From contig CAZCMD010000001.1 in the NCBI GenBank assembly GCA_964499695.1, positions 13,872 through 77,871 on the forward strand: 64,000 bases of DNA, given 5' to 3'. Positions within the stretch are counted from its first letter, which is position 1, and every line of letters starts with the position of its first letter. Positions 46,001-61,706 of the stretch are shown in pieces. Position numbers and translations under genes: made by a program. The notes below the pieces were generated by a model. It searched no databases. It worked only from the letters and a program-made list of their open reading frames with translations, and was not told where the DNA came from. This stretch comes from an uncultured Desulfatiglans sp. (GTDB lineage Bacteria; Desulfobacterota; DSM-4660; Desulfatiglandales; HGW-15).

Positions 46001-46946
46001 TAACCTCTATTTGAGCTTTTTTATCAGCAAAGTATTCAGGTATTAAGTTGAACAGTTTAAGCCTGTCATTTTTCTCAATAGATGATAGATTGTTGATATT
46101 GTCCAGATGATGAATAAGCATCTTCTTTATATCATCTCCATATTTACCGTTAAAGTGTTCGAGTATTCTCAGGTACATAAAGATTCTTCCGGCATGTATA
46201 TAATCTCCTTTATGATTTACAGTTATGCCACCTGAATGTTTTCTATATACTGCCCAATTCTCATCAAAATATTTAATTTTCTTATCACCACAAATAAGCA
46301 TAACAAGGGCCATATCCCTGCTTGGAACTTTAAAATACCAATCAGGTATATTAAGATTTTCAGGTCTCTTACAAACTATACTGACCGTGGGGCAAAGCGG
46401 TGAAGAAATTAAATCAGACATTGTGTAAACATCTCTATTCCTGTCAATCCCATTCCATGGGAAATCAGAATATAAAAGACCTTCTTTATTCGGATTATCA
46501 AACTCGACAACCGTGTTATGAAAAGAGATAACATAATCTGGGTTGGCTTCCAAAAAATCCACCTGCTTTTGCAGTTTATGAGGGTCTGTCCAATAGTCAT
46601 CCCCCTCGCATAAGGCACTGTATTTACCTTTTGTCCTGTCTCGCTGGATTCGCCCGATTGTACCATCTTTTTTTTGAAACTGGTTTTCTGTCTGATAGAT
46701 CGGCTTTATCAGGTTGGGATATCTTGCTTCGTATTCCCGGATAATATCGGCTGTCCTATCAGTTGACGCATCATCATGAATAAGTATCTCAAATGGAAAA
46801 TCTGTTTCCTGGATCAAAAAGCCCTCAAGCGCATCTTCAATATACTTTTCGTGATTATAACTCATGCATTTGATACTTACTATTGGTTTGGCAGCCTCAC
46901 CTTTCCAACTTTTCATTATCTCTTGTTCTGACCGTAATATTCTCAA
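43098..46946 (-). CDS. 1282-aa multidomain enzyme: GT2, GT4, methyltransferase-like domain, and a class I SAM methyltransferase
   Basis: GT2 (VSIKCMSYNHEKYI, IHDDASTDRT, CEGDDYW; ~46200-46890). GT-B (EGMSISLMEAMGCGLVPV; ~44930-45990). IIDAGCFLGGST region (~44155-44710). LLDLGCGEMP...ELFEHLPD...LKPGGLLFFTVPF (~43345-43765). The track start is a TTG; an ATG at 46916 is an alternative. Confidence 0.8.
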   Translation of the reverse strand: MRILRSEQEIMKSWKGEAAKPIVSIKCMSYNHEKYIEDALEGFLIQETDFPFEILIHDDASTDRTADIIREYEARYPNLIKPIYQTENQFQKKDGTIGRIQRDRTKGKYSALCEGDDYWTDPHKLQKQVDFLEANPDYVISFHNTVVEFDNPNKEGLLYSDFPWNGIDRNRDVYTMSDLISSPLCPTVSIVCKRPENLNIPDWYFKVPSRDMALVMLICGDKKIKYFDENWAVYRKHSGGITVNHKGDYIHAGRIFMYLRILEHFNGKYGDDIKKMLIHHLDNINNLSSIEKNDRLKLFNLIPEYFADKKAQIEVNHKAPLKVTFVAYGPNQINGPNIWLQRILPELAARGIKPEVIFLMNADSECTVLRNLQRNGIPCIVVPRQQYTEQNILQLLNILKPDPPDLFVPNLSVPAYFASRWIKEAGIPTVGILHSDDNFHHELIEYFVSGDMDYRLSGIVCVSEYIKGLVEAQNVPDVEMLKCPYGISLPDKTVDKPGRELNLVYTGRLIQRQKRIFDVIESLKKVLDKIPGTSATLYGEDREQGNAIEAINTAQFGNRLRYGGLLAVDEIFPALLQNHVFVLLSDYEGMSISLMEAMGCGLVPVCTKTKSGATEIIKHDENGLLVDNREEDFLNTIVRLQNEKGLWRRLSKAARKTVEKEYTIKVCADRWADFIKKMVLRTSIKSEIKIPASDSMNLPQIKITDNGIAREDKRIPLHKKTSFKNKKKHEYPAALDGISSDWRRIILPEKIKLITTMLSVEERQLLYMLGKEYWKGVGAIIDAGCFLGGSTLSLAMGVSENKINESKFKVIHSYDLFIADKHQSDKYLKKYGDYSPGDSIRSIFDQNTFEIKNILDIHEGDITSFPWDKTAIELLFIDVSKSWEINDFIVREFFPNLIPNHSIIIQQDFIHPTCPWLAITMEFFSEYFEPIIYVPNNSVVFILKKKIPYSKIRHNIISSLSAQEKLSLMDSAINRYEKFLEKGDLVELECARAILKLSLLGVLEAQQSLIEINDKYKNLKRTKVAINWVEKRISENLSNSTRQNNFINIPLTPENMDLYYMRSSIKKSIDEKLNIFKGTLLDLGCGEMPYKQYILSNSKVEKYIGLDIENPTYQQNGKPDMFWDGRKIPLDDNTVDTVMATELFEHLPDIESVLKEINRVLKPGGLLFFTVPFLWPLHDAPHDEYRYTPFSLERHLKAADFTDISINALGGWNASLAQMIGLWVKRSGLNKEQTDFFTKDLFTFYNHLLQSDYTPQAFQDQIMTAGFSGTAFKNQYLSKKAR

Positions 46947-47015
46947 TTCAACCTCTCAATAAAATATTGCACCCGCTTCCGTTATGGTTCATTTTAATTC
47001 AATCTTCATTTGCGG

Positions 47016-47747
47016 TTACTCTATAATATCAATAAGCTTTAGCCGCCGCGAAATCTCAGCGATTTCATCTATCGTGTTTTCCCCTATATCTTCAGAGAGG
47101 AGAATAGCATTCTCCTTCAGTATATTTACCGGCCAGTCCCACCATTTTGATGAGTCGATCCTTCTTTCGGTTTCATCATTGAAGCGCATTTTCAGCTTTT
47201 TAGCCGGTGCACCTGCAACCACGGAATAAGCCGGAACATTTTTTGTAACAACGGATCCAGCCCCTATTACAGCGCCGTTGCCAACAGACACACCCGCCAA
47301 TATGATAGCACCGGCCCCAATCCAAACCCCATTACCTATGATCGTGCGATCCCGCGGAGGGGATGGTATGTCAATCCCAAATTTTTCCTTCCAGTTGATG
47401 CCGGTCTGCATGCTTACACTGCGCATATTGTGATTAACCGCCCCAATGCTGACATTCCATGACAAAGAACACATCCGCCCGATTTGTGAATGTATAACTC
47501 GAGTATTCTTGTTTGTTGAAGAACCAAGACCGATTTCTGAAAATGAAATTAAACAATCCATATCTATACGATTGTGTCCTTCGAGTTTTGAATAGGCAAT
47601 ACGGGACCTGTCACATAATTTCGCGTCATTGCCGATTTCCGAACATGTTATATATATATCATTATATATGATGACATCCTGGCCTACAGTAGTGTCTTTA
47701 ACAACAGTATTTCTACCAATGTCTAAATTATTTTTTAAATTATTCAC
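47016..47747 (-). CDS. hexapeptide-repeat (LbH) acetyltransferase
   Basis: [50 protein letters not shown] start overlapping the upstream stop (GTGA). Confidence 0.8.
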
Positions 47748-49384
47748 TGTACCGGCATCCTTTCAGAGTTCATTTCTCTAACTCCAAAAATTATATCAAG
47801 CACCACGATCCATTCTTCAGCTCTTTTAAAGTTATCATCCCTCCAGGAAATTGCGCCAAAAATCATCGACACAATGTCAATAAATACGGCGTCGTCAAGC
47901 ATTGAGCGGTCCGCATGCATGCCAAAAAAATCTTTCAATTCCTCAAAATAATCCTTTCTGTTACCGCCGAAGTGCAAGAGTTCATATGCAATAAAGCGGG
48001 AGAACTCCATTACAAACGGGGCGTAATATCCCAAGGGATCTATAAGTTTAATATCATCGTTTTCAATCAGGGCATTGTTCCCTGATATATCGCCATGGAT
48101 GAGAAATCTTTCAGACGGCAGTCCGCGATACTTCAAGAGTGCGCTCTCAAGGAGTTGCCTGCAAAATGCTTTTTTATATCCTACTGTAAGAGCCATACGG
48201 TATTTATCCTCCAACTCGACAACATAATCCTGAATGCAGGTATCAATACCGCCTTCCGGGGCCATCTTCATAGAGGAACAGATTCGCCTAAATAGACCTT
48301 CCAGCAAGTAGCGGTGTTTTGAAAAAGCCGTATAGTCACCTGGTATAATTCTTTTAAGCAACATGGCATAACGTTCATCGTCGCTGTCTATAAGCTTCGC
48401 TGTAATATCAGATGATAGGGTTTCTAAAGTGAACTTTTCCCGTTCATATCGTCCAGTGAATGGAGGTATTACCTTAATAATAACCGCACCAAATCTTTCA
48501 GAAGATGCCTCAAAAACCAGCCCAAAATTCGATGCCGGGTGAAGCGTGTAGTCGGTTATATCCCATTTTGCCAACAAATATTCCACATCAGCATCCAATG
48601 TCCTAGCCCACTCCCGAACTTCCTTACGCCATACTATGCGCAACCTCTGAAAAAGGTCTAAAGCAACATCATTGCTATGAGCTCTGAACTGACGCTTTTT
48701 TTCACGATGGGCCAGTAACGCTTCTACAATCGCAATATCATGGGGGTATATTATCTTAATGTAGTCAGTAAAATCCCAATAAAGCTTTGTTTTGACATTT
48801 GAAGGCAGTTGGTGCGCAATGACAGTCAAAAGTGAATTTTCATTAAAATGTTTCACCAGCATGTCGAAGTGATATCCGTGTGGATTTTGTATCATGTAGT
48901 ACCTTGAACGGTCCACGCTGGGCGTGTCATAGCACCCGAGACTGGTTGGGATTTTTGATGTGGTTAGCACTACGTCATATCGGTCCAAATACTCAAAAAA
49001 CTTATCAAACAACGCGCCGGTAACCAATGGATTGACTGCATCTGTCACAACTAGCTTATCGCAATCGTAATGATTTCCAATGTAATGAAGGACTTTATTG
49101 AAAGACTTATTCCTTTCCTCACCGCCCTCAATAATCACGATGCCATATGTATGTCGGAGTTTATTTATATAATCCCCTCTGGCTGCTACGATAATCTCAT
49201 CAGCTTTGCGTGATGCAAGGGCAGCACGGATCGTGTATTCAATTACCGGCCTACCGTTGACCAAGTGATACTGCTTTGGAACTGGATCACCGAACCTGTT
49301 GCCTACACCGCTTGCAAGTATCACAATCAAGTTATTTTTCATGGATGCTATACCCTGCCTTCTTAAATTATGTTGACCTGTCAC
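47744..49384 (-). CDS. bifunctional IspD-like cytidylyltransferase plus APH/choline-kinase-like phosphotransferase
   Basis: N-terminal [18 protein letters not shown]...GRPVI. C-terminal [23 protein letters not shown] (HGDxxxxN kinase loop). The start is either the GTG at 49384 (GTGA overlap) or the ATG at 49342. Confidence 0.7.
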
Positions 49385-50526
49385 AAATCAAGAATATCCA
49401 GGAGCCTTGCGGAATTCCGATTATCTTGATAGGTGTGAATGTAGTTTTTTAGTTTTGCCCTTTGGTCAGCAAAAATGTCATTTCCATTTGCCACATCGCT
49501 CATGAATTCGATTAAATCCTTTGTGGACCAAATTTTCTTTCCGGGCATATAGTCTAAAGGGTTTTCAACAATAAAACCGGGCGTATATTCATTAAAATCA
49601 TCTAATGTGTAACCGATCGGCCTGTCGAGGAGGAGATAATCGAAAGCGACAGAGGAGTAATCAGTTATCAAAGCATCTGTTTCGGCCATTAATTGATATA
49701 GGTTGATTCCTCGTTTGCGCAGTATTTCATTTGACATCAGGAGGATATTTTCTGACTGAACGATGGTGATGGCAGAAAGGTCTTGAACCGGGTGCGGTTT
49801 AATGATCAATAAAATGTCCTTCTGACTAAGACAGTCATCTAACAGTTCTAAGTCTCCTGCAGTACTCAGCACAGGAAGTCCCAAAGCATTTCCTTTCCCC
49901 GAATCATTACAGTCTATGTAACGGTGTTTTCTGAAAGTTGGCATCCATATAATAGTTATTGTATGCTGTCTTCCGCATGTTATTTTTGCTAGTTGTCCGT
50001 TGGGGGAAAACAGATCGTCATTGCGCGGAAAACCACAGACAAAGTACTTTGACGGATTAACACCAAACCTTTCCGAGGATCCGGCAATCAGATTTTTAGA
50101 GGTGCATAGAAAACGGTCGACATTTTCATCGTAATCACTGAGATACTTTGTAGCATTTTTTAGCCCAAAAGCACCATGAGTAAGGAAGATGCCAATTTGG
50201 CTTTTTTTTCTCTTTCCTATGACCATACCGTCGGCGATCAAATATCTTGCCCTTGTCAGCAAAATTAGATCAGCTATGGTTTTGTGGCTTCTTCGGCTTC
50301 TATCCATGACGGTGACATTAGATACGTTGATGTTTTGCCACTCTAGAACGTCACGAACAAGCCACACCAGTCTGTATTTTTTGTTAAGACCCCGACGCAG
50401 CATCTCTCTATAAAGAGCGCCAGTATTACTGTCAAAATCATCTTCACTTTCAAGGATGATAATATTTCCAAGTGGCAGATATTTTAACAAATTATCAAGG
50501 CAAAATATTTTATTCATTATAGTCAT
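49381..50526 (-). CDS. CDP-glycerol glycerophosphotransferase (TagB/TagF) family protein
   Basis: CGFPRNDDL, IIWMPTFR, IIKPHPV and LITDYSSVAFDYLLLDRP. Confidence 0.8.
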   Translation of the reverse strand: MTIMNKIFCLDNLLKYLPLGNIIILESEDDFDSNTGALYREMLRRGLNKKYRLVWLVRDVLEWQNINVSNVTVMDRSRRSHKTIADLILLTRARYLIADGMVIGKRKKSQIGIFLTHGAFGLKNATKYLSDYDENVDRFLCTSKNLIAGSSERFGVNPSKYFVCGFPRNDDLFSPNGQLAKITCGRQHTITIIWMPTFRKHRYIDCNDSGKGNALGLPVLSTAGDLELLDDCLSQKDILLIIKPHPVQDLSAITIVQSENILLMSNEILRKRGINLYQLMAETDALITDYSSVAFDYLLLDRPIGYTLDDFNEYTPGFIVENPLDYMPGKKIWSTKDLIEFMSDVANGNDIFADQRAKLKNYIHTYQDNRNSARLLDILDL

Positions 50527-50571
50527 TCGTAAATTCGTTTGGTGCGTATTATATTGTCTTTGTTCACTGTC

Positions 50572-51915
50572 TCATGACCGAAGGATCTTAGCTAAATCAA
50601 AGGCGAGTTCCACCGCCTGTTCAGCATTCAGACGGGGGTCGCAGTTCGTCTGGTAATTAAGATACAGATCCTTATCGATAAGTTGTCGATTGCCGCCGAT
50701 ACATTCCGTAACATTGTCGCCTGTCAGCTCAAGATGAACACCGCCTCCAACTGTTTGCTCAGCCTGGTGGATCTGCCAGAACATTTTGATTTCCCCAAGT
50801 ATGTCTTCGTATTTTCTGGTCTTATGCGAAAGTCCATTGGTGTATGTGTTTCCGTGCATGGGATCACAGATCCATAGAACCCTGAATCCCTCTTTTTTAA
50901 ATTCCCGAAGCAGAGGTGGAAGAAATGATTCGATTTTTGTCGAACCGAAGCGTGTAATAAGCGTTAGACGTCCTACATCATTATCAGGGTTAAGCAATTG
51001 TATGAGACGTTTTATTTCGTCGATATTGTGATCCGGCCCGATTTTTACGCCGATGGGATTACCGACGCCTCTTAAAAATTCCACATGAGCCCCTTCAAGC
51101 TGGCGTGTCCGATCACCGATCCATACCATATGGGCGCTTGTGTCGTACCATTTGCCTGTAGTCGTATCGATTCTTGTCAGGGCCTCTTCGTATTCAAGCA
51201 GAAGGGCTTCATGAGAGGTGTACACCGTGATTTCGTTTAACTGGGGGGCCTTGATATCTATACCAATCGCGGTCATAAAGTTCGCGGCCTTTCTGATCCC
51301 GTTAACAAGCTCATCATATTTCTGGTTGGCAGGGAAGGAACCGAAACTGGCCTCGCTCCATGATTGAATTTTATCCAGCGCGGCGTAGCCGCCTCGGGTA
51401 AATGCCCTTACGAGATTAAGGGTTGCGGTGGACCGGAAATATCCCTCCAGTATCCTGCGAGGATCAGGTGTTCTCGCCTCCGGTGTCGGATCAGGGCTGT
51501 TAATCATATCTCCCCGATAACTGGGAATCTCGATGCCATCGACCGTTTCAGTGGTGGAAGAACGGGGTTTGGCATATTGCCCTGCCATTCTGCCGATTTT
51601 TATAATTTTCTTCTCTCCAGCGTAGGCAAGGATTATGGACATCTTAAGTATGACCTTCAGGAGATCATGGATACGCGGGCCGTTGCAACGTGAGAAATTT
51701 TCGGCGCAATCTCCAGCCTGAAGGACAAATGCCTTGCCTTCGATTACCTCAGCAAGCTGCTGCTTCAACGCTCGTGTTTCTCCGGCGAAGACCAGCGCAG
51801 GCAACTGAGAGAGCTTTTGCAGCATATCTTCGCAAACACGGGCATCAGGCCAGTTCGGCTGTTGTCGTATTGGAAAAGAACGCCAGCTTGATTTCGACCA
51901 TTCAGGAGTTCTCAT
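50572..51915 (-). CDS. class II 3-deoxy-7-phosphoheptulonate (DAHP) synthase
   Basis: Collinear by eye with M. tuberculosis/plant-type DAHPS: QQPNWPD, LQAGDCAE, GRMAGQYAKPRS, SYRGDMIN, WIGDRTRQ, CDPMHGN, CDPRLN. Confidence 0.9.
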   Translation of the reverse strand: MRTPEWSKSSWRSFPIRQQPNWPDARVCEDMLQKLSQLPALVFAGETRALKQQLAEVIEGKAFVLQAGDCAENFSRCNGPRIHDLLKVILKMSIILAYAGEKKIIKIGRMAGQYAKPRSSTTETVDGIEIPSYRGDMINSPDPTPEARTPDPRRILEGYFRSTATLNLVRAFTRGGYAALDKIQSWSEASFGSFPANQKYDELVNGIRKAANFMTAIGIDIKAPQLNEITVYTSHEALLLEYEEALTRIDTTTGKWYDTSAHMVWIGDRTRQLEGAHVEFLRGVGNPIGVKIGPDHNIDEIKRLIQLLNPDNDVGRLTLITRFGSTKIESFLPPLLREFKKEGFRVLWICDPMHGNTYTNGLSHKTRKYEDILGEIKMFWQIHQAEQTVGGGVHLELTGDNVTECIGGNRQLIDKDLYLNYQTNCDPRLNAEQAVELAFDLAKILRS

Positions 51916-51937
51916 GTTATATCCTTAACTACCCGAT

Positions 51938-53083
51938 CTAATTATAAACAGGCTGCCAGGTCATGGTATCTTTTGATTTGACCATGGATTCAATCATATG
52001 AATTCCTTCTAGCGCCAGTTCGATCCCAAACACATTTTCAGAGTGCCAATGCCCGGTTGCCCTGTACTGACAGAGACAATCGGCAATATCCATATAAAGA
52101 TTGGCAAATGCCTCTATAAAACCGGCAGGGTGCCCGGCCTTAAACCTGTTATACCGTCTCATATTTGCAACCTCCACATAAGAGGCTCTATCCATAATTA
52201 CCCTGCGCCCATCAGCGTATGATACTAGCAGTTCCTCAGGACGCATCTGATACCATTCAGCAGAGGCTTCTGAGCCATATATCCTGAGTCTTAATCCGTT
52301 TCTTTGACCCAACGCTGACTTGCTGAACCATATCTGGCCCTGAATGCCTTCCGAATAGCGACAAAGACATGTGACGTTATCAATAACCTGTGAAAACCAT
52401 CCGTAACTGTTCTGATCGGCAATAACCTCAAGGGGTTTTTGTCCCACCAGATAGTGAATCAGCTGATGAAGATGAGACCCCAGGTCAAGGTGAATCACGG
52501 GTACATGTCCGTCGGTAAGCCTCCATGACTGGGGCGCCGGCTTATTCCCATGTGCATCCACCCTGATATAGCCTTCCTGAGGCATTTCAGCCTGAAAGTG
52601 CAGTATCCTGCCAAGCATACCCTTTTGGATCATTTTTTTCAGTTCACGCACCATCGGGTACCCCGAGTAATTATAGGTCACTGCAAGGAAACTATTTCTT
52701 TGACTGCAAAGGTCCAGGACTGTTTTGGCATCGGCGCTGTTTGTAACCAGGGTTTTCTCACAGATTACCGGGTAACCCGCCTCCAGACAGGTCATGACAA
52801 TCTCATAATGGGATGGGGTCGGTGTCAGAATGGTGATAGCATCCAGACGGCCTTTTTCTTTTTTCAACAGTTCCTGCCAGTTGTCATATGCCCTGTCAGA
52901 GGCTACCCCGTAAGCCTGTGCTGTCTCAAGATTCCGCTTTTCATCTGTACTGAAACAACCGGCCTTGACAGCCCAGCGATTATCCATGGTAGAGGATACG
53001 GCATGTGCATATCCAACCGCGGAATATAAAGAACCACCTATAAAACCTAGTGACATTGGTGAGGACACTGTCGGCTTATCCAT
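51938..53083 (-). CDS. Gfo/Idh/MocA-family NAD(P)-dependent oxidoreductase
   Basis: LGFIGGS...ILTPTPSHYEIVMTCLEAGYPVICEKTL. GGGAG RBS. Confidence 0.8.
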   Translation of the reverse strand: MDKPTVSSPMSLGFIGGSLYSAVGYAHAVSSTMDNRWAVKAGCFSTDEKRNLETAQAYGVASDRAYDNWQELLKKEKGRLDAITILTPTPSHYEIVMTCLEAGYPVICEKTLVTNSADAKTVLDLCSQRNSFLAVTYNYSGYPMVRELKKMIQKGMLGRILHFQAEMPQEGYIRVDAHGNKPAPQSWRLTDGHVPVIHLDLGSHLHQLIHYLVGQKPLEVIADQNSYGWFSQVIDNVTCLCRYSEGIQGQIWFSKSALGQRNGLRLRIYGSEASAEWYQMRPEELLVSYADGRRVIMDRASYVEVANMRRYNRFKAGHPAGFIEAFANLYMDIADCLCQYRATGHWHSENVFGIELALEGIHMIESMVKSKDTMTWQPVYN

Positions 53084-53101
53084 TATAATCTCCCTTTAAT
53101 T

Positions 53102-54262
53102 TCATTGAGTTTGGTTAATCGTATACAGGTTTCTGTTGAGAGTCTTTTTGTATAAATCCAGTAGCTCTTTCTCTGAATTATTCCTTGAAAACAATAACGC
53201 AATCCTGCTAAAAGGACTGGCTTTAATCATATCGCCCGCTAAGCTTATGGGGACCATCTTTTCTATCAGAATTGGAAAATGGAACTGGATTGATCCCAAA
53301 ACACCTTCAACAGGCTGAGAAATGGTATGCCTCATTATCCAGGCTTGCTTCATAGTTACTTTTTCAAATGTGAAATTTTGTTTTACAAAGGATCTGGCAT
53401 ATGTTTCTGCATAGCTAAATCCGGTTGAGAGTTCGATCAATTGACTGTACAGATCGCCGGGACAGCGTCTTGTCACCTCAATCAACCAGAATGATTCCCC
53501 GTTTTTTATGAATTGCGTGTGGACAAGCCCATCAACCATCTTCAACTCTTTTGAAAGTAAGGTAATACTTTTTCGTATGCGATTCAGCATTTCGGAAGGA
53601 AAGTCATAAATCACACGACTGGTGTCAACCACAAATGGGTTTGCCGTACTGTTCTCTTCGACAATAAAGTCTGCTACTATTCTGCCGCTGGTAATAAACG
53701 CTGAATGGCTGTATAGCTGACCTTCAACATATTCTTCGATTATGCATGTCTTTAAACGGGAGAATTCCTTTGCACGGTTGATGGCTGATTGCAGAGCCCG
53801 TTTTTCCGGCCTTTTAAGGACAGTCATGCCGTGACCGCTGTAAGCATCAATAGGCTTGACAATCAAAGGCCTCATTTCGTCCGAATGCTCGCCCGAGATT
53901 AGAGCCGGAACCGGAAGGCCGATCTGTTTTGCGAATCTTCGAAATTTATCTTTTTTATTGATAATGTCGGTTGTCTCCGGTGTATCCAGGCCATGATAGC
54001 TCCCTTTTGAGTTAAGCTCTGCGCACACCTGGTATGAACGGTCATTACACCCGGGGACGATGTAATCAATATTTAATTTTGCTATCAATTCTTCGGTTTG
54101 TTTAACATCGGAATAATCCATATTGATATAATTTCTGACTGATTTAGCCAGAAAATCCTTTGGGTTTCCGCCAATAACAAAGACCTCGAAACCGGACTTG
54201 ATCAAATAATTATAGATCGGCGCTGATGAAAAATTGGTGTCAACTAAAAGTACTTTATTCAT
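53102..54262 (-). CDS. ATP-grasp domain protein
   Basis: NKKDKFRRFAKQIGLPVP...LIVKPIDAYSGHGMTVL...IIEEYVEG... pattern of ATP-grasp ligases. Confidence 0.7.
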   Translation of the reverse strand: MNKVLLVDTNFSSAPIYNYLIKSGFEVFVIGGNPKDFLAKSVRNYINMDYSDVKQTEELIAKLNIDYIVPGCNDRSYQVCAELNSKGSYHGLDTPETTDIINKKDKFRRFAKQIGLPVPALISGEHSDEMRPLIVKPIDAYSGHGMTVLKRPEKRALQSAINRAKEFSRLKTCIIEEYVEGQLYSHSAFITSGRIVADFIVEENSTANPFVVDTSRVIYDFPSEMLNRIRKSITLLSKELKMVDGLVHTQFIKNGESFWLIEVTRRCPGDLYSQLIELSTGFSYAETYARSFVKQNFTFEKVTMKQAWIMRHTISQPVEGVLGSIQFHFPILIEKMVPISLAGDMIKASPFSRIALLFSRNNSEKELLDLYKKTLNRNLYTINQTQ

Positions 54263-54298
54263 TATTTGTACTCACCGGGGTGTTTGAATTTAAGAAAA

Positions 54299-55372
54299 TT
54301 ATTGAGCTTTCGCATACAATACCGTCTCTTCATAATGCTTTGTAAAGTGATCTAAATAAAATTTATATCCAAGATTTAAGTTGTTTATCAAGTGAACTAT
54401 GTTAGCAAAATCATTCATGTTATGATAAATGGAGATGGCTAGCTCCGGTTTAAATCTTCTCAATGTTTGTTCGGCGCCTCTCAGTGCATTTTGTTCCGCC
54501 CCTTCTATATCCATTTTTATAAGGTCAATTTTGGCTAATTGCTCCTGATCAACGAAATCGTCTATGGTTATCGTATATATGTTATTCTCGTGTCCTTCAA
54601 ACGGTGTTAACGACACCTTACTGCCTGGACCATTATCCCGATAAAACATCCTGATACCTGATTTATCCCATAACGGATTTTCAACTATTTTTATTATATT
54701 TTTAAAATGAGGATTAAGATTAATATTTTTGTAAGCTACCTGTAGATTATTCGGAATAAACTCAAAGGAATATACTTTTCCATTCCCTTTTACCTTATTA
54801 GCAAAAAATAATGTTGTATCGCCCCAACAGGCTCCACAATCTATAACAATATTGCCGTTCTTCGCACCAATGATTATTTGATCATCCGTTATATATTCAT
54901 AGGGCTTCAGTAAAAATTGACTGAATATGGTTCCAGGCGCAGTATATAGCTTAACCGGCAAATCAAGAGGCGACAAGTCCGCGAAAAAAAGATTTTTTTT
55001 CATGGAGCTTACATAATTAACTTCTACCTTATCTTCGGGATCTATCAATGATGACAACTCATCAATTTTTTTAGAATAATCCGTTGCCGAAAGGGGCAGT
55101 CGTATTTTCCTATGACCAAGAACCCTGAATGCGAGTAAATGGAGCAGGAGCTTTTTTGATCGAAAATCATCGAGGAGATAAAAAAAGGATTCAAACTCAT
55201 CCAGGAAATTTTCTATTTCAAAAAGATTTTCCTGCCCATCAACTATTTCTCTTTCCGGTTCCCCGAATCTGGAAAAAGAAAAATTATCTTTAAAATTATT
55301 TTTCCAGGCTTTAGCAAGGGTCTGTAAAAATGCATGGAAGAAGAAATTGTCTTTAGTATCGCCATCTGCCAT
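54299..55372 (-). CDS. FkbM-family methyltransferase
   Basis: VIDCGACWGDTTLFFA...SFEFIPNN...IKMDIEGAEQNALRGAEQTLRRFKPELAISIYHN. Confidence 0.8.
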   Translation of the reverse strand: MADGDTKDNFFFHAFLQTLAKAWKNNFKDNFSFSRFGEPEREIVDGQENLFEIENFLDEFESFFYLLDDFRSKKLLLHLLAFRVLGHRKIRLPLSATDYSKKIDELSSLIDPEDKVEVNYVSSMKKNLFFADLSPLDLPVKLYTAPGTIFSQFLLKPYEYITDDQIIIGAKNGNIVIDCGACWGDTTLFFANKVKGNGKVYSFEFIPNNLQVAYKNINLNPHFKNIIKIVENPLWDKSGIRMFYRDNGPGSKVSLTPFEGHENNIYTITIDDFVDQEQLAKIDLIKMDIEGAEQNALRGAEQTLRRFKPELAISIYHNMNDFANIVHLINNLNLGYKFYLDHFTKHYEETVLYAKAQ

Positions 55373-55373
55373 T

Positions 55374-56540
55374 TTATTCTTCTCCAGCGATTATATTTAG
55401 GATTCTTTTTATGTCTGATTTGTCGATCTCAGGATAAATCGGCAGACAGAGAATTTTCTCGGTAACGGTTTCCGCTACGTGCAGAATGCCGGGTTGTGCC
55501 GATTCAAGGCCCCTGTATGTTGGGAACTGGCTTATAAGAGGATAAAAATACCGTCTTGAAAAGATGTTCTGTTTCTTTAATGCGTTATAAATATCATCCC
55601 TTGATTTTCCGAAGGTGTTTTCATCAATTACGATCGGGAAATACTGATAATTATGCCTTACTTCAGGAATGTCTTCAAAGAATGAAATTCCGGGCAGGTC
55701 TCTGAGGCGCTTACTGTAATATTCCGCTATCTCTTTTCTTTTCTGAATGGACTGGTCAATATATTTTAATTGTAGTATGCCCAAGGCGGCCTGGAACTCA
55801 TTCATCTTTGCGTTTATTCCGGGTGCTACTACAGTAGTCTCGCCGGCAAAGCCGAAGTTCTTTAAAAAATCTATCCTTTTTTTCGTTGTCTCGTCATGGC
55901 AGATTATTGCGCCTCCCTCGAAGGTCGTGAATACCTTTGTCGCGTGAAAGCTTAAAACTGAAAGGTCGCCGAAATTTAAAACTGAGTTGCCGTTAATAGT
56001 TACACCAAAGGCATGGCAGGCGTCATAGATAACCTTTAAACCATAAGTCCCGGCTATCTCCTGGATAGCCTCAACATGACACGGATTACCATATACATGA
56101 ACGGGAAGGATAGCTGTTGTTTTAGGGGTAATAGCCGCCTCGATCTTTTTGGGGTCCAGATTGTATGTCACAGGGTCAATATCACAGAACACCGGTTTGA
56201 TGCCGTTCCAGTTAAGGGCATGGGTTGTGGCTACAAAACTAAAAGGGGTTGTTATGACTTCACCAGTTATTCTAAGTGTCTGAAGAGCGCTTATAAGTGC
56301 CAGTGTGCCATTGGAGAAAAGACAGACATATTTAACTCCAAGATATTCAGCCAGTTCTTTTTCAAAACGCTCATGATATGGGCCCTTATTGGTGAGTTGT
56401 TTTGATTCCCAGATTTGTTCAAGGTACTCATAAAATTCTTCAAGCGGTGGAAGAAAAGGTCTAGTAACATATATCGGTTCTTTATTATCAATATTATCTG
56501 CAATCACATCATCTGATATTTGTGGTGTATTCGTTGTCAT
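55374..56540 (-). CDS. DegT/DnrJ/EryC1-family sugar aminotransferase
   Basis: FSNGTLALISAL...PFSFVATTHA...SFHATKVFTTFEGGAI (PLP-lysine). Confidence 0.88.
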   Translation of the reverse strand: MTTNTPQISDDVIADNIDNKEPIYVTRPFLPPLEEFYEYLEQIWESKQLTNKGPYHERFEKELAEYLGVKYVCLFSNGTLALISALQTLRITGEVITTPFSFVATTHALNWNGIKPVFCDIDPVTYNLDPKKIEAAITPKTTAILPVHVYGNPCHVEAIQEIAGTYGLKVIYDACHAFGVTINGNSVLNFGDLSVLSFHATKVFTTFEGGAIICHDETTKKRIDFLKNFGFAGETTVVAPGINAKMNEFQAALGILQLKYIDQSIQKRKEIAEYYSKRLRDLPGISFFEDIPEVRHNYQYFPIVIDENTFGKSRDDIYNALKKQNIFSRRYFYPLISQFPTYRGLESAQPGILHVAETVTEKILCLPIYPEIDKSDIKRILNIIAGEE

Positions 56541-56561
56541 ATTTTTCCGTTATAAAAGTTA

Positions 56562-57203
56562 TTAATTGTTTGTGAATTGTCTTTCATAGTTATGTTTACA
56601 GATATTGCTATGTTTATTAATCTCTTCATGCCACGACAGGGTTGATATCAACTGACCAACCCAATATTTTATAATTTGCATATGACAGAGACTGGCATTT
56701 AAACGGTTTTCAGCAGGGATATAAAAATTTATTGAGCCGAGGGTTTTTAAAGTGTTGTTAGAGTTCATTGCAGAGAGAGTGCAGACATTGTTACCGGTTC
56801 TTTGTGCTTCCATTGCAGCATTGATGATATTCCTTGATTCACCTGAACTGCTTATTGCTACAAGCATATCCCCCGTGACCATTTTTTTTCTTAGGGGTTC
56901 AGCAAATATTTCATCATACCCTGAATCTCTCGCTACCGCTGTTAACAGTGAAAAATTATTAAATGATTCAGTATCTATTCCGGTGTTTTTTGCAAGGGTT
57001 GATGCGGTGTCACTGGCGATTGAAGCGCTGCTGCCATTGCCTATAAAATATATGGTTTTTTTCCTCTCAAACACCCCAAGGGCATAATTATGCAATTGTT
57101 TAAAAGCAATGTCAGTATCTATAATATTTCCGCTTATATCACTCACGGACATTGAAAGAAGGTGCTCTTTAAGATGATTTATATGTGTTTTCCAGTTAGT
57201 CAT
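56562..57203 (-). CDS. SIS-domain sugar-phosphate isomerase (GmhA/DiaA-like)
   Basis: IYFIGNGSSASIASDTA...LVAISSSGESRNII. 213 aa. ATGA overlap with the upstream MerR-like gene. Confidence 0.75.
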   Translation of the reverse strand: MTNWKTHINHLKEHLLSMSVSDISGNIIDTDIAFKQLHNYALGVFERKKTIYFIGNGSSASIASDTASTLAKNTGIDTESFNNFSLLTAVARDSGYDEIFAEPLRKKMVTGDMLVAISSSGESRNIINAAMEAQRTGNNVCTLSAMNSNNTLKTLGSINFYIPAENRLNASLCHMQIIKYWVGQLISTLSWHEEINKHSNICKHNYERQFTNN

Positions 57204-57544
57204 TTCATACCTAAAAATTTTGTTACTTCCATTTTAACCAGGTCAGAGATCCTTTTGGTGAGCATATCTATCTCACTTTCAGGTGACTTCGTAATACTGC
57301 TGCCATTATTGAAATACTCCTTTACCTGTGAGATACTCTTGCCTGCATTTCTCAGGTTTTTTATCTTTTCAAATACCGGGATATGAGATTCTGTATACCT
57401 TCGCTGTCCACCCGGAGTTCTTGAAGTCACAATTATTCCTTTCAGCTCCTTTTCCCAGAATCGTAAAGTTGGTTTTGGAACATCTAATATTTCGCTCAGT
57501 TGTTGAATGGTAAGCTGAGGTGTGTCTTGGTCTATATTGCTCAT
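57200..57544 (-). CDS. small MerR-family HTH protein
   Basis: LTIQQLSEILDVPKPTLRFWEKE...RTPGGQRRY, a MerR-type winged HTH. 114 aa. Confidence 0.7.
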   Translation of the reverse strand: MSNIDQDTPQLTIQQLSEILDVPKPTLRFWEKELKGIIVTSRTPGGQRRYTESHIPVFEKIKNLRNAGKSISQVKEYFNNGSSITKSPESEIDMLTKRISDLVKMEVTKFLGMK

Positions 57545-57599
57545 AAAATGAACCCTTTAAGTTTATGAATAAATGTTTTTTATGGGGAAGAATGGGTTA

Positions 57600-57616
57600 C
57601 TGGTAAAATATACCAG
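57600..57616. promoter_or_regulatory. perfect palindrome CTGGTA-N5-TACCAG upstream of the MerR-like gene (possible operator)
   Basis: Read directly from the sequence. Lies 56-72 nt upstream of the ATG at 57544 and just downstream of the galE stop. Confidence 0.25.
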
Positions 57617-57649
57617 CGTGTTCATTTATTGGATAATTTGAATAACAGT

Positions 57650-58642
57650 CTATTTATAACCGGTTGGATTGGATTTATGCCATCGCCATGCGGTTTCAAC
57701 GATACTTTCGAGATCGGTGTATTGAGGTTTCCAACCTAAATCACTAATAATCCTCTCGCTTGAACCTATCAACTTTGCGGGATCTCCAGCTCTTTTATTA
57801 TCTATCTTAAACGGGATGAATTTTCCGGTTATTTTTTCGGTTGTCTCTATTACCTGTTTAACTGAATAGCCTTCTCCATTTCCCAGGTTAAAAATAACTC
57901 CCTTTTTAACATCTGATAGTTTTTCCATGGCTAAAAAATGTGCCTGTGCCAAATCTGTTACATGAATGTAATCCCTTATGCATGTCCCGTCTTTTGTAGG
58001 GTAATTGTCACCGAATATACTGATATAATCTCTCTGACCCAGAGCAGTCTGGATTGCCAGCGGTATAATATGTGTTTCAGGGTTGTGGTCTTCGCCTATT
58101 TCACCATCAGGGTCTGCGCCAGCGGCATTAAAATATCTCAAGGCAATATAATTGAGACCATAAGCTTTATGATAATCATTCAGGATTTGTTCCACCATTA
58201 ATTTACTTCTTCCATAGGGATTTATAGGGCACTGAGGATGTTCTTCTGTTATTGGAATTTCAGATGGTTCACCATATGTTGCACAGGAAGAAGAGAAAAT
58301 CAAATTATTAACATTATTTTTTCTCATGGATTCAAGAAGAGAAATGGTCGCCGCAACATTATTAAAATAATATTTGCCCGGATCACTTATTGATTCACCC
58401 ACATATGCAAATGCAGCAAAGTGCATTACTATAAAGATATTATTTTCTTTAAAAATCGTGGATAAAAGCGAATGGTCTTCAATAGAACCTTTTATAAAGG
58501 TGCCCCATTTCACTGCTTCAATATGTCCAAAGACCAGGTTATCAAGTATAATTGGATTATATCCTCTTTGATAAAGGTATTTGGACATATGGGACCCGAT
58601 ATAGCCTGCCCCTCCAACAATCAGAACGTCAACTTTTTTCAT
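57650..58642 (-). CDS. galE: UDP-glucose 4-epimerase
   Basis: VGGAGYIGSH, SSSCATYG and YGRSK (YxxxK), with GalE-like length and C-terminus. Confidence 0.88.
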   Translation of the reverse strand: MKKVDVLIVGGAGYIGSHMSKYLYQRGYNPIILDNLVFGHIEAVKWGTFIKGSIEDHSLLSTIFKENNIFIVMHFAAFAYVGESISDPGKYYFNNVAATISLLESMRKNNVNNLIFSSSCATYGEPSEIPITEEHPQCPINPYGRSKLMVEQILNDYHKAYGLNYIALRYFNAAGADPDGEIGEDHNPETHIIPLAIQTALGQRDYISIFGDNYPTKDGTCIRDYIHVTDLAQAHFLAMEKLSDVKKGVIFNLGNGEGYSVKQVIETTEKITGKFIPFKIDNKRAGDPAKLIGSSERIISDLGWKPQYTDLESIVETAWRWHKSNPTGYK

Positions 58643-58830
58643 AATAATTATTTTTGTTTTTAAAGGTTTATTCCCAGATTACAGGGCAGGCTCCGCCCCT
58701 TTGGTTTACATACCCTGGTAATGTCTTAAATATTTGGTTTCCAAAATTGATAAATCCTTTAGGGAAAGAAGAGGCTTTATTACCTCATCCCATGAAGAAT
58801 TAACTTAAGCTTTAACTTTTACTTGAAACT

Positions 58831-58846
58831 TGCAATATGAGTGCCA
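58831..58846 (-). promoter_or_regulatory. consensus sigma54 promoter in front of galE and the glycosylation island
   Basis: Reverse strand reads TGGCACTCATATTGCA (TGGCAC-N5-TTGCA), about 190 nt upstream of the galE ATG. Confidence 0.7.
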
Positions 58847-58976
58847 CAAAATAATACTAATGAAAATACTCGTTATAACAATAGGTTATATCTTTTTTAT
58901 ATTGTTTATTGGGTGTTAAAGGTCAAGCGATTGACGCTTAAAGTTGAAAAATTTGCCGGATAGTTTTAGGTGTCAG

Positions 58977-59012
58977 AAAATTGACCTTGCTGAAAAATGC
59001 ATGGCAGGTCAA
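58977..59012 (-). terminator. rho-independent terminator candidate after the SBP/hybrid-kinase operon
   Basis: Reverse strand reads TTGACCTGC-loop-GCAAGGTCAA (one bulge) followed by TTTT, starting 19 nt after the kinase stop codon. Confidence 0.45.
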
Positions 59013-59030
59013 CGGAGATTAGAAAGAGGT

Positions 59031-61706
59031 TTACCTTGCCAGTGCATCCCGTATGGCCCGCCCTATCTTTTCTATATTGTAGGGTTTTTTGATATATGTA
59101 AAGGCGCCAAGTCGCAATGTCTCTCTTACCTGTTCTGTCTCTGAAAACCCGCTTGCGATAACAGCCTTCTGGCCAGGGTGTATTTCAAGTATCTGTCTGT
59201 ATGTCTCAAGGCCGTTAATCCCCGGTTCCATGATCATATCAAGGACAACAAGATCGGCAGAGTTGTTTTTCATATATTCTATGGCCTCCTCGCCACCTGA
59301 AACCGCAGTTACCCTGTATCCCAGTTTATCTAATATCCGGGAGAGGATTATCCTCTGCTCTTCTACATCATCAACAATAAGTATGGATTCACCCTTTGAT
59401 ATATATACATCAAGTGGTATAGAGGTTTTTTTTGCTGCCACATTCTCCCTGCTGGCCGGAAAATAGAGCCTGATAGTAGTTCCCCTGTTTTCTTCACTCC
59501 TTATATCAACATACCCTTTGTGGTCTTTAACTGTTCCCCATACAACGGTCATGCCCAAACCTGTGCCGCTTCTACCCATCTTCTTTTTGGTATAAAAGGG
59601 TTCAAAAATATTTATGAGATCCGTTTCCGGTATACCATCACCTGTATCCGATACAGTGAGTGTAACATACTCCCCCTCTTTGATATTTTCATAACCTGAA
59701 ACAGGTTTGTCCAGGTATTGATTTTCTGTTGATATCTGAATCCTCCCGCCATGAGGCATGGCCTCTGCGCTGTTGGATACAAGGTTCATGATTATCTTTG
59801 AGAGGTGAAAGCCTGACCCCATTATATTGAACAGGCCCTCATCAAGGTTTATATCCACCTCGATAGTTGGATGAAAGGAGAGGATATTTTCACATTCAGG
59901 GCTTTTCAAAAACTCGGTGATTATACTGTTCAGGTTTAAAACCTCATTTACAGAAACCCCTCTTCTTGCAAGGGTAAGAAGGTCCTGCACGATTGCGGCT
60001 GCCTTTTCACCGGCCTTTTTTATTGTAAGGAGCGGGCCTTTAAGGGGATTGGTGTCAGGCATGTCTAATGTCAAAAGTTCAGGATAGCTAACTACACCGC
60101 CAAGGATATTGTTCAGGTCATGGGCCACCCCGGCTGCAAGTGTGCCTATGACCTCCATTTTCTGGGCGCGCATAAGTTTTGATTGCAACTCCTTTGATTC
60201 GGATATGTCTATCACGGTAAGTATCATACCCTTTGAAAGGTCTTTTGAATCAAGGGCGCAGGCACCTAAAATACAGTCAAGTACAGCGCCATTTTTTCTG
60301 GCCCATTGTGTTTCAATGTTGATAGTATCCCCATTAGTATCTGCAAAAAGTCGTTTATCTACGCGCTCATATTCTGTCTCATTAGTGAAAAGTATAGATA
60401 TGTTTTGTCCAATCAGGGATCCTTCTTCGTAGCCGGACATGGTAAACAGTGTTTCATTTGCCCATTCAAGTCTTGCATTGTTTATGAGCCCTATCCCTAT
60501 AGGTGAGGCCATAAGGATGGCCTTCATCTTCTGCTCGCTTTCCAGCAGCACCTTTTCTACCTGCTTTCGTTCTGCAACCTCCTTTTCAAGGGCATCCCTT
60601 GATACTGTTGTGGTTTTCAGGTCATTCACCATCAAGCTGAAACTTTTTGCAAGGTCACCGATCTCATTATTGGAGCGGATATCTATCTCAAGTGATAATT
60701 GGCCTTTACCAATCTTTTTTGCTGCATCCCTGAGTTCTATAACCGGTTTTGTAAGCCTTCTTGACAGGAATACGCCTGATATTACCGCCAGTATAAGGCT
60801 CAGGAGCATGACAGATCCTGAAAGTATAAGGGTCATTACCACAGGCTGATAAGCCTCAAGAACAGGCAATTCAACAATCACAGCCCATTCAGGTGATGAA
60901 AGCGGGACATGGCTTGCAACCACAAGCCTATTGTTAATACCCCGCGATATCCTGGGTGAAATATCAGTCATGTGTGTCTTTTCTTTTACAAAGATATCCA
61001 CCTCCCTGAGATGAGACAGGTTCTCTCTCTTTAATACAGGGGCTATATCCCGATATGCAATCAGGTATCCCTGCTTTTCCACCACATAGGCTACGCCATT
61101 TTCACCGATCCTGATCCTCCCCATCAGGTCCCACATGAATTTAAGATTCAGGTCAGCTATCAGTGTGCCAAGAAAATCGCCAAATACATCTGTTACAGGC
61201 ACTGCCATGATCATCATTGGCTCACTTGTTGTTTCATCAATATATACAGGGCCGATATAGGTTTCATTGTTTTTCGTTTTTTGAAACAATTCATCCCTGT
61301 TGAAGTGCTCAGGTTGTGTGGAATTGATTTTGGTAATACGGGCTATCCTTGCTGTCTCTTCTTTTCCTGAGTCAAAAAGGATCAACTGGCGAAATGCCGG
61401 TTCAAGCCCCATTAATCTTTCAAGGGTTGGTTCCTGTGCCTTTTTTGGGGTAATCGGCATATTTCTGCGTCTTGAGGCGGATTCCAGTTTGGTAAATTTT
61501 TCTTGTATAAAATATTCAACCGCGTTTGCTGCATCCTTTGCTATAAATTTTTGATTTGTCAGTATAATTTTTTGCTGTGCCTGGAAGCTGAAATACATCT
61601 GCAGGGTGGTGGCAATAACAAGGGCCGCCATAGTCAGCACAGAAAACCCTGTGGCCAGTGTAACTGCAAGACTTCTGAATTTTTCTGATTTTTTATTTGC
61701 TGACAA
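59031..61706 (-). CDS. hybrid sensor histidine kinase (TM, periplasmic Cache-like domain, HAMP, PAS, HisKA, HATPase, REC)
   Basis: Two TM helices flank a ~270-aa extracytoplasmic region. AAGVAHDLNNIL H-box, NLVSNSAEAM, SDTGDGI, GTGLGM. C-terminal REC (ILIVDD...LDMIMEPGING...KKPY). TTG start 1 nt after the SBP stop. Confidence 0.88.
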   Translation of the reverse strand: MSANKKSEKFRSLAVTLATGFSVLTMAALVIATTLQMYFSFQAQQKIILTNQKFIAKDAANAVEYFIQEKFTKLESASRRRNMPITPKKAQEPTLERLMGLEPAFRQLILFDSGKEETARIARITKINSTQPEHFNRDELFQKTKNNETYIGPVYIDETTSEPMMIMAVPVTDVFGDFLGTLIADLNLKFMWDLMGRIRIGENGVAYVVEKQGYLIAYRDIAPVLKRENLSHLREVDIFVKEKTHMTDISPRISRGINNRLVVASHVPLSSPEWAVIVELPVLEAYQPVVMTLILSGSVMLLSLILAVISGVFLSRRLTKPVIELRDAAKKIGKGQLSLEIDIRSNNEIGDLAKSFSLMVNDLKTTTVSRDALEKEVAERKQVEKVLLESEQKMKAILMASPIGIGLINNARLEWANETLFTMSGYEEGSLIGQNISILFTNETEYERVDKRLFADTNGDTINIETQWARKNGAVLDCILGACALDSKDLSKGMILTVIDISESKELQSKLMRAQKMEVIGTLAAGVAHDLNNILGGVVSYPELLTLDMPDTNPLKGPLLTIKKAGEKAAAIVQDLLTLARRGVSVNEVLNLNSIITEFLKSPECENILSFHPTIEVDINLDEGLFNIMGSGFHLSKIIMNLVSNSAEAMPHGGRIQISTENQYLDKPVSGYENIKEGEYVTLTVSDTGDGIPETDLINIFEPFYTKKKMGRSGTGLGMTVVWGTVKDHKGYVDIRSEENRGTTIRLYFPASRENVAAKKTSIPLDVYISKGESILIVDDVEEQRIILSRILDKLGYRVTAVSGGEEAIEYMKNNSADLVVLDMIMEPGINGLETYRQILEIHPGQKAVIASGFSETEQVRETLRLGAFTYIKKPYNIEKIGRAIRDALAR

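Follow-up and report, generated by a model that had tools for sequence, protein, structure and literature searches.

Class II 3-deoxy-D-arabino-heptulosonate 7-phosphate (DAHP) synthases occur as paralogues in biosynthetic operons for phenazines (PhzC) and ansamycins (RifH), where they are presumed to give a private supply of a C7 precursor. Here we describe a class II DAHP synthase (DAHPS) in a flagellin glycosylation island of an uncultured Desulfatiglans sp., within a stretch of 64,000 nucleotides (contig CAZCMD010000001.1, positions 13,872 to 77,871). We call the whole stretch the window and use its own numbering unless another locus is named. Like PhzC and RifH, this DAHPS is an extra class II enzyme in a biosynthetic operon, falls in a clade apart from sampled housekeeping enzymes and would presumably provide a C7 precursor privately. 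It differs from them in its setting, a glycosylation cassette (for protein or polysaccharide), in being of the long type IIA, and in having no downstream enzymes specific to chorismate or aminoshikimate.

Other described systems resemble parts of the locus. The pathways to 3-deoxy-D-manno-octulosonic acid (Kdo; KdsD-KdsA-KdsC-KdsB) and to nonulosonates (NeuB/PseI/LegI with NeuA) also place an aldolase of the same mechanistic class, dependent on phosphoenolpyruvate (PEP), in a glycan locus, whereas here the phosphatase and the CTP_transf_3-family cytidine monophosphate (CMP) transferase are absent and the sugar isomerase (SIS) gene is not conserved. Modified viosamine reportedly occurs on the flagellin of Pseudomonas syringae and P. 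aeruginosa, and N-acylated 4-amino-4,6-dideoxyhexoses of the VioA/VioB type in O-antigens. Those systems are said to combine a DesI/VioA-like aminotransferase fed by RmlA/RmlB with 4-N-acylation, O-methylation and transfer to flagellin, much as would happen here. Their acyl group is said to come from acyl carrier protein or acetyl-CoA via acyltransferases, whereas here an ATP-grasp enzyme would use a free acid to whose making DAHPS and a Gfo/Idh/MocA oxidoreductase (Gfo) contribute.

L-amino-acid ligases are carboxylate-amine ligases acting via an acyl phosphate. The predicted fold of the ATP-grasp protein is nearest to those of BL00235, RizA and BacD/YwfE (template-modelling score, TM, up to 0.82), and the protein would be expected to form an acyl phosphate that is then attacked by an amine, but sequence identity is 12-17%, the context is a glycan locus and two amino acids are probably not what it joins. 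Mycosporine-like amino-acid clusters contain an AroB-like cyclase, an O-methyltransferase and an ATP-grasp ligase. The same trio of C7 sugar-phosphate cyclase, O-methyltransferase and amine-attaching ATP-grasp is seen in those relatives of our cassette that carry AroB; mycosporine clusters, however, use sedoheptulose 7-phosphate cyclases and a methyltransferase of another family, lack DAHPS, DegT and Gfo, and yield free small molecules.

The DAHP synthase and its cassette

Window proteins were annotated with Pfam and NCBIfam profiles, scanning about 60 open reading frames (ORFs). Homologous loci from other genomes and metagenomes are designated by L numbers. The island runs from the flagellin gene to about 58.6 kb and is rich in glycosyltransferases and methyltransferases; FliD, FliS and FlaG adjoin the flagellin and flank the island. 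Five of its genes, encoding DegT, FkbM, ATP-grasp, Gfo and DAHPS, form one tailoring cassette. These and the flagellin are:

55374-56540, minus strand: DegT-family pyridoxal-phosphate aminotransferase, DesI/VioA-like (PF01041, 374 bits)
54299-55372, minus strand: FkbM-family S-adenosylmethionine methyltransferase (PF05050, 85.6 bits; TIGR01444, 87 bits)
53102-54262, minus strand: ATP-grasp carboxylate-amine ligase, L-amino-acid-ligase type (Pfam ATP-grasp_4/_3)
51938-53083, minus strand: Gfo/Idh/MocA NAD(P) oxidoreductase (Pfam GFO_IDH_MocA N- and C-terminal domains)
50572-51915, minus strand: class II (type IIA-like) DAHP synthase, cassette-specific clade B (PF01474, TIGR01358)
26994-27752, minus strand: flagellin, 252 aa (Flagellin_N and Flagellin_C), presumed acceptor of the island glycan

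Profiles and coordinates agree on the full-length class II DAHPS that an earlier note, made from the sequence alone, had placed on the island strand, and the neighbouring families, intergenic distances and overlaps in that note all proved correct on re-checking. DegT and FkbM are 1 nt apart, Gfo and DAHPS 22 nt, and a TagF-like gene follows DAHPS at 45 nt. Terminator-like sites in 46900-59100 do not exceed chance (13, versus 10.2 +/- 3.3 in shuffled sequence). In agreement with the earlier note, no Pfam match to another shikimate enzyme or to a NeuB-type synthase was found among the ORFs scanned.

The synthase itself matches PF01474 with 647 bits (cut-off 27) over residues 6-442 of 447, and the TIGR01358 equivalog with 618 bits, just over the cut-off of 614.7. 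Its alignment with PA2843, a primary-metabolism enzyme of P. aeruginosa (PDB 5uxm, 527 bits), spans the full length, and that with PhzC (PDB 6bmc, 405 aa) is only partial. The motifs for metal, PEP and the phosphate of erythrose-4-phosphate (E4P) are kept (GDCAE, GRMAGQ, KPRS, DRTRQ, GVKIGP, ITRFG, DPMHGN, HLELTG, CDPRLN). Alignment to M. tuberculosis AroG and PA2843 gives the positions of the metal ligands (Cys, His, Glu, Asp) and of the PEP/E4P-phosphate residues (Arg, KPRS, Arg, Lys, Arg), all of which are present. All motifs are retained in 23 of 23 sequences of its own clade (clade B), as are the catalytic residues in all seven sequences of a second lineage described below (clade A). The window's DAHPS is therefore predicted to be an intact enzyme condensing PEP with E4P. 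Its nearest homologues are metagenomic proteins, at up to 85% identity; the nearest from named taxa belong to Syntrophales, Smithella and Syntrophus (68-72%). A LexA protein encoded in the window falls into a cluster with Desulfatiglans at 90% identity or more, which makes a Desulfatiglans-like bacterium of the Desulfobacterota the probable host.

Genomic context was looked up for eight homologues with 68-85% identity. Seven of the eight lie in a cassette with ATP-grasp, DegT and an oxidoreductase, beside flagellin, pilin-like or Wzx/polysaccharide genes, and all of these cassettes have an FkbM gene except L088 and L091, which are disrupted by transposons. The exception among the eight, the DAHPS of Syntrophus gentianae (70% identity), stands alone. 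As a negative control only, we used 80 DAHPS loci of named genomes (50-60% identity), drawn from a contig scan with the DAHPS query that housekeeping DAHPS of 50-54% identity had saturated; none had an ATP-grasp or Gfo relative within 10 kb. Conservation of the neighbourhood had been set beforehand as a test that could refute the earlier note's proposal of a DAHPS dedicated to a sugar-tailoring sub-cluster. The proposal survived: the set of DegT, ATP-grasp, Gfo/Idh/MocA, FkbM and DAHPS recurs (L082, L083, L086), and the relatives of the window's DAHPS do not show the glycan-free neighbourhood of a housekeeping gene (7/8, versus 0/80 controls). The clade of this DAHPS is found almost only in such cassettes. 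From its conserved neighbourhood the DAHPS therefore belongs to the cassette, and it very probably works for it rather than for aromatic amino-acid synthesis.

The seven cassettes are of two types. Type 1 (DAHPS identity 79-85%; L082, L083-85, L086-87, L088) has orthologous DegT, ATP-grasp and Gfo/Idh/MocA genes, with ATP-grasp orthologues 71-77% identical in those aligned, and in some cases a B12-radical-SAM gene. In L082 and L086 it directly adjoins flagellin and further flagellar genes, and in L083 it is part of a Wzx/Bac_transf polysaccharide cluster. Type 2 (68-75%; L089/90, L091, L093) is a rearranged cassette in which a short-chain dehydrogenase/reductase (SDR) replaces Gfo and the ATP-grasp is distant (27% identical to the window's); its order is ArnC-like GT2 glycosyltransferase, ATP-grasp, SDR, FkbM, DAHPS, GtrA or LPG_synthase_TM, DegT and a protein of ~600-650 aa with no Pfam match. 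In L091, from a Syntrophales metagenome-assembled genome (JBHKXH010000001.1, 829475-850818), several N_methyl (type IV pilin-like) genes border the type-2 cluster, two transposases break it up and an AroB-like gene, borderline at 301 bits against a cut-off of 305, lies directly upstream of DAHPS.

The cassette was also approached through its ATP-grasp gene. Scanning metagenomes with aligned ATP-grasp sequences gave 80 loci (44-80% identity), in which ORFs were called and clustered into families. Counts are for 79 loci (L115 left out) and for a fully flanked subset of 17 with at least 5 kb on both sides; the ORF map of one locus, L173, is unreliable, omitting genes that tblastn finds there. Families near ATP-grasp were:

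DegT: 15 of 17 fully flanked loci; 47 of all 79
Gfo-type oxidoreductase: 16 of 17; 45 of 79, plus 14 with a second, divergent Gfo/Idh/MocA family
FkbM-family methyltransferase: 13 of 17; 41 of 79
DAHPS: 4 of 17; 19 of 79

The widespread unit is DegT, Gfo, ATP-grasp and FkbM, to which DAHPS is accessory. Named members come from Desulfobacterota, Bacteroidota and Cyanobacteria.

Eight loci (L116, L130, L134, L135, L136, L141, L145, L152) carry the second DAHPS lineage, clade A, 47-52% identical to the window's enzyme. The order there is (DegT-)DAHPS-Gfo-ATP-grasp, and genes overlap by 4-8 nt in L130, L141 and L152; overlaps and recurring order indicate that DAHPS, Gfo and ATP-grasp are one functional unit. 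That two DAHPS lineages share the same partners, with translational coupling, argues that metabolism links DAHPS through Gfo to ATP-grasp. A neighbour-joining tree places the cassette-linked DAHPS in two clades, A and B, separate from the housekeeping sequences sampled; it is a rough distance tree, with a housekeeping sample biased to Alphaproteobacteria and Campylobacterota.

Partner enzymes and a proposed route

The best PDB match of the window's DegT is DesI (2po3, 251 bits), ahead of NtdA (164), KdnA (113.5) and RifK (1b9h, 113), and its best NCBIfam model is also that of DesI (TIGR04427, 345 bits versus a cut-off of 650). DesI is the dTDP-4-keto-6-deoxyglucose 4-aminotransferase (dTDP, thymidine diphosphate). 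Directly upstream of the orthologous DegT lie RmlB and RmlA in L116, L123 and L127 (both over cut-off), and RmlA alone in L121. The window has its own pair, ~53 kb from DegT and both above the NCBIfam equivalog cut-offs:

1186-2244, minus strand: RmlB (TIGR01181, 495 bits, cut-off 365)
298-1173, minus strand: RmlA (TIGR01207, 478 bits, cut-off 361)

Judged by these matches, the two could supply dTDP-4-keto-6-deoxyglucose to the DesI-like DegT. Neither rmlC nor rmlD is visible near them at the window edge, on the part that lies inside the window.

The AlphaFold2 model of the ATP-grasp protein (pLDDT 90.9) predicts a three-domain fold nearest to L-amino-acid ligases. The best Foldseek matches are 4dim and the ligases BL00235 (3vot), RizA and BacD/YwfE, with TM of 0.82 for 3vot, 0.80 for 3wo1 and 0.70 for 4wd3 and a probability of 1.00 each. 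At E<=1e-30 the family numbers 1826 proteins, and not one of them bears a functional name. For Gfo the best PDB relatives, 3v5n, 3dty and 7d5m, have no known function; inositol and scyllo-inositol dehydrogenases come next. Gfo adjoins DAHPS in both DAHPS clades and may act on a DAHPS-derived metabolite.

Further clues come from genes that some cassettes add. A genuine AroB (TIGR01357, over cut-off) lies inside three of them, as DegT-AroB-ATP-grasp in L113, AroB-x-ATP-grasp-Gfo-DAHPS in L098 and DAHPS-Gfo-ATP-grasp-AroB in L135. This indicates 3-dehydroquinate, rather than a free heptulosonic acid, as the branch point, and since AroB removes the phosphate it would account for the lack of a phosphatase in the cassettes. 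The AroB-like gene of L101-L103 was not counted, as it belongs to another subfamily (TIGR04425, 418 bits) and lies on the opposite strand. Beside ATP-grasp/Gfo in L135 (6133-10196), L161 (5781-9864) and L172 (167 onward) is a trio of CsaB-like pyruvyl transferase, aldo-keto reductase and MenD-like thiamine-diphosphate enzyme (243.7 bits versus a cut-off of 244.2); the MenD-like and pyruvyl-transferase families occur also in L082 (11364-15457) and L097. The natural substrate of MenD is isochorismate, so the gene hints at more cyclohexene carboxylate chemistry in some cassettes. The type-1 cassette of L107 contains (9119-11693) a SKI-family kinase (the shikimate kinase/gluconokinase family), a 6-phosphogluconate dehydrogenase and a PF04199 cyclase, which may add to pentose-phosphate/E4P supply.

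A class III (ornithine/GABA-type) aminotransferase recurs in L096 (5698-9250, accompanied by an iron-containing alcohol dehydrogenase), L100 (2565-3839), L137 (2223-3503) and L152 (11171-12454), so some variants may carry out a second amination, at a primary alcohol.

Two kinds of enzyme were looked for and are missing. Neither a KdsB/NeuA-type cytidylyltransferase nor a phosphatase occurs in any related cassette, including the compact flagellar locus L086. In the window the KdsB/NeuA family (PF02348) leaves only a sub-threshold trace, 20.4 bits on 39985-40704 (cut-off 22.6), and no HAD/phosphatase family matches the island ORFs or the cassette genes of related loci. Since no cassette has a sugar-acid nucleotidyltransferase, the nucleotide handle must come from an ordinary nucleoside diphosphate (NDP)-sugar.

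We propose, with a probability of roughly 0.4, that an acid derived from DAHP is amide-linked by ATP-grasp to a 4-amino-4,6-dideoxyhexose, O-methylated and put on flagellin. DAHPS would maintain a private DAHP pool that does not draw on aromatic amino-acid synthesis. DAHP would be converted to a phosphate-free carboxylic acid, likeliest through cyclisation to 3-dehydroquinate by AroB, which would be the housekeeping enzyme here and a cassette-encoded one in some relatives. The inositol-dehydrogenase-like Gfo would then carry out redox tailoring, for example to a quinate-type cyclitol acid. In parallel, DegT would turn dTDP-4-keto-6-deoxyglucose, the RmlA/RmlB product, into a dTDP-4-amino-4,6-dideoxyhexose. 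ATP-grasp would activate the acid as an acyl phosphate and form an amide bond to the amino group of the sugar, FkbM would O-methylate the product, and the island glycosyltransferases would transfer it to flagellin. In relatives lacking DAHPS the four-gene core would take its acid from the housekeeping shikimate pathway; the presence of DAHPS in 4 of 17 fully flanked loci, as opposed to 13-16 of 17 for the core genes, agrees with an acid that general metabolism can supply as well.

This route would account at once for the missing CMP-transferase and phosphatase, for a DesI-like DegT with rml neighbours, for AroB in some cassettes and for cassettes without DAHPS. We lean slightly towards a broader statement, that the cassettes divert the first one or two shikimate steps (DAHPS, in some cases also AroB) so that a C7 unit is incorporated directly into surface glycans; this unit would be a heptulosonic acid or a quinate-like carbocycle that is joined by ATP-grasp and O-methylated.

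Several points weigh against the proposed route. The substrates given to Gfo, DegT, ATP-grasp and FkbM are those suggested by family resemblance and gene order, and we know of no glycan with such an acyl group. DegT reaches only about half of the DesI equivalog cut-off, and rml genes lie near many glycan clusters for other reasons (L127 also has rmlC). Folds like that of the L-amino-acid ligases usually take alpha-amino acids as carboxyl substrate. Pairs of Gfo and DegT classically make amino sugars (WbpB/WbpE, GnnA/GnnB, NtdC/NtdA), a role that would free Gfo from the DAHP side. AroB is present in only 3-4 of ~30 DAHPS-bearing loci and absent from the window's cassette, which leaves DAHP itself as a possible substrate here.

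The rest of the island and window

Genes of the island outside the cassette and the flagellin include:

57650-58642: GalE (462 bits, above cut-off)
57200-57544, minus strand: MerR-family protein (Pfam)
56562-57203, minus strand: SIS_2/SIS-domain protein (Pfam; weak GmhA-like match)
49381-50526, minus strand: TagF-like phosphotransferase (Glyphos_transf, 142.9 bits)
47744-49384, minus strand: 546-aa protein (IspD546) with an IspD-like N-terminal domain and an uncharacterised C-terminal half of ~300 aa (Pfam/NCBIfam)
47016-47747, minus strand: LbH (hexapeptide) acetyltransferase (Pfam/NCBIfam)
43098-46946, minus strand: GT2-GT4-methyltransferase fusion, 1282 aa (Pfam)
41884-43095, minus strand: GT4 glycosyltransferase (Pfam)
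39985-40704, minus strand: ribitol-5-phosphate cytidylyltransferase-like protein (IspD239; NF001183, 163.4 bits, cut-off 166)
38929-39981, minus strand: extended SDR, not a 4,6-dehydratase (98 bits versus 365)
36395-38884, minus strand: 829-aa protein with a faint TagF-like match only

Overlaps of 4 nt are found at the MerR/SIS, TagF/IspD and IspD/LbH junctions. In none of 92 related loci did tblastn find a counterpart of the SIS, MerR or TagF-like gene or of either IspD-like gene. MerR and SIS, overlapping each other on the cassette strand, are not part of the conserved cassette, and the SIS protein matches the phosphoheptose isomerase GmhA weakly (54 bits versus a cut-off of 209). The N-terminal domain of IspD546 has as best PDB relative TarI, a ribitol-5-phosphate cytidylyltransferase (4jis). 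From these matches, the IspD-like and TagF-like genes with the adjacent SDR probably form a cytidine diphosphate (CDP)-alditol (teichoic-acid-like) decoration branch of this island, IspD239 and the SDR at 38929-39981 being a candidate pair for making the CDP-alditol and the 829-aa protein a possible further member; phosphodiester-linked alditols on flagellin would themselves be unusual. The LbH protein is probably an acetylation branch, likewise specific to this island. Two candidate roles were rejected: that of 57650-58642 as a 4,6-dehydratase feeding DegT, since its profile match is to GalE, and that of an IspD-like enzyme and the TagF-like transferase in CDP-activation of DAHP via its 7-phosphate and in transfer, since neither gene is conserved with the cassette. 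A GT4 segment recurs with 74% identity inside a 1788-aa protein of L082.

The guanine-plus-cytosine content is 45% in 50001-54000 (DAHPS-Gfo-ATP-grasp), 43-47% for core genes at 1-8 kb and 32-42% in the rest of the island (28001-50000); the rise could reflect stronger protein constraint or a separate origin of the segment. The 112-aa ORF at 30952-31290 (minus strand) covers the first 57 positions of a GT2 domain and adjoins a full GT2 (31316-32677), of which it is probably a truncated duplicate or pseudogene. Between the lipopolysaccharide (LPS)/sugar genes and the flagellar genes is an ordinary chemotaxis cluster, 9309-18444 (plus strand) and 20636-22824 (minus strand), with a CheA-CheW-receiver fusion, CheW, CheB, CheR, an M23 peptidase, a CheZ-like protein, CheY and an HD-GYP-type response regulator.

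A second DegT-family aminotransferase, at 5714-6901 (minus strand), is a full-length match to KdnA (PDB 5k8b, 352 bits) and adjoins an iron-containing alcohol dehydrogenase (6973-8136). KdnA is the 8-amino-3,8-dideoxy-manno-octulosonate transaminase, and its pairing with KdnB in Kdo8N synthesis is reportedly known from Shewanella. The organism probably makes an amino-ulosonic acid of the Kdo8N type for LPS, unrelated to the flagellin island.

Alternative explanations and significance

One alternative follows the earlier note. Gfo would oxidise DAHP and DegT would aminate it, giving a 4- or 5-amino-3-deoxy-heptulosonic acid. After N-acylation by ATP-grasp, O-methylation and activation with a nucleotide, this acid would be transferred as a glycosyl residue, making it a seven-carbon analogue of pseudaminic or legionaminic acid. 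Such a scheme gives all four core enzymes sequential roles on one skeleton and suits the contiguity of DegT, DAHPS, Gfo and ATP-grasp in clade A cassettes. Gfo with DegT is the classical oxidise-then-aminate pair, housekeeping DAHP could feed the cassettes without DAHPS, and KdnA, of which the window has a likeness, shows that the DegT family can accept ulosonic acids. We nevertheless consider the scheme improbable. The Kdo- or nonulosonate-like route from SIS isomerase through PEP aldolase to CMP activation finds no support, as SIS is not conserved and KdsB/NeuA-type CMP-transferase and phosphatase are absent from every cassette, L086 included. CMP activation by the IspD-like proteins is likewise unsupported: their family makes CDP-alcohols from alcohol phosphates, both resemble ribitol-5-phosphate cytidylyltransferases and neither accompanies the cassette in the 92 loci. 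Against amination of a heptulosonic acid stand the distance of DegT from KdnA and NtdA (113.5 and 164 bits, versus 251 for DesI) and the RmlB-RmlA pair upstream of it in relatives. AroB, in three cassettes, would destroy DAHP.

Alternatively, DAHPS (with AroB where a cassette has it) might simply raise housekeeping flux, and ATP-grasp would couple the amino sugar made by Gfo and DegT either to an aromatic amino acid or to an acid derived from chorismate. Extra class II DAHPS are a known precursor-supply device in antibiotic and phenazine clusters, PhzC (6bmc) is among the PDB matches, the ATP-grasp fold is nearest to ligases using alpha-amino acids, the recurring MenD-like enzyme (243.7 versus 244.2 bits) recalls the use of isochorismate by MenD, and most cassettes do without DAHPS. 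However, no chorismate-using enzyme or shikimate gene beyond AroB was seen among the recurrent and intra-cassette genes annotated (rare neighbours were not exhaustively scanned), withdrawal of an end-product amino acid would itself relieve feedback inhibition so that a private DAHPS is not needed, and the close DAHPS-Gfo-ATP-grasp coupling suggests consecutive steps rather than steps six housekeeping reactions apart; we regard flux boosting as unlikely. A route like that to aminoshikimate is very improbable. Its triad of Gfo/Idh/MocA, DegT and class II DAHPS does parallel RifL/RifK/RifH, leading to aminoDAHP and, through the AroB-like enzymes that some cassettes have, to aminodehydroquinate (aminoDHQ) and an amino-cyclitol or aminobenzoate unit, but DegT scores 113 bits to RifK versus 251 to DesI, no RifM-type phosphatase, RifN-type kinase, dehydroquinase (dehydratase) or aminoDHQ synthase was found among the window ORFs scanned, an unrelated SDR replaces Gfo in type-2 clusters, and ATP-grasp and FkbM are left without a role. 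That a housekeeping DAHPS sits in the island by chance is hardly credible, although the enzyme passes the class II equivalog model and aligns in full to PA2843, its S. gentianae relative stands alone, and the 45% GC of 50-54 kb is like the core genome and unlike the island. The seven of eight cassette contexts, set against 0/80 controls, largely refute it; a second DAHPS clade has been recruited to the same partners, and the neighbours lie at 22 and 45 nt with no terminator signal over chance.

The gene context is a solid result and comes as a surprise for glycobiology; the chemistry we infer. In open-access papers and preprints we found no account of a glycosylation locus with DAHPS or AroB, and prior work in subscription journals is possible. 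To our knowledge, DAHP and 3-dehydroquinate are known only as intermediates toward aromatic compounds and a few antibiotics. The proposed route is directly testable: it predicts a diagnostic flagellin mass, and the five-gene cassette can be reconstituted with PEP, E4P and dTDP-glucose. Incorporation of these intermediates into flagellin, pilin or polysaccharide glycans, if true, would add a new building block, or class of constituent, to bacterial glycans and a new metabolic fate for DAHP, would assign a role to the more than 1800 unnamed proteins of the ATP-grasp family, and would explain the class II DAHPS genes in glycan loci of anaerobes.

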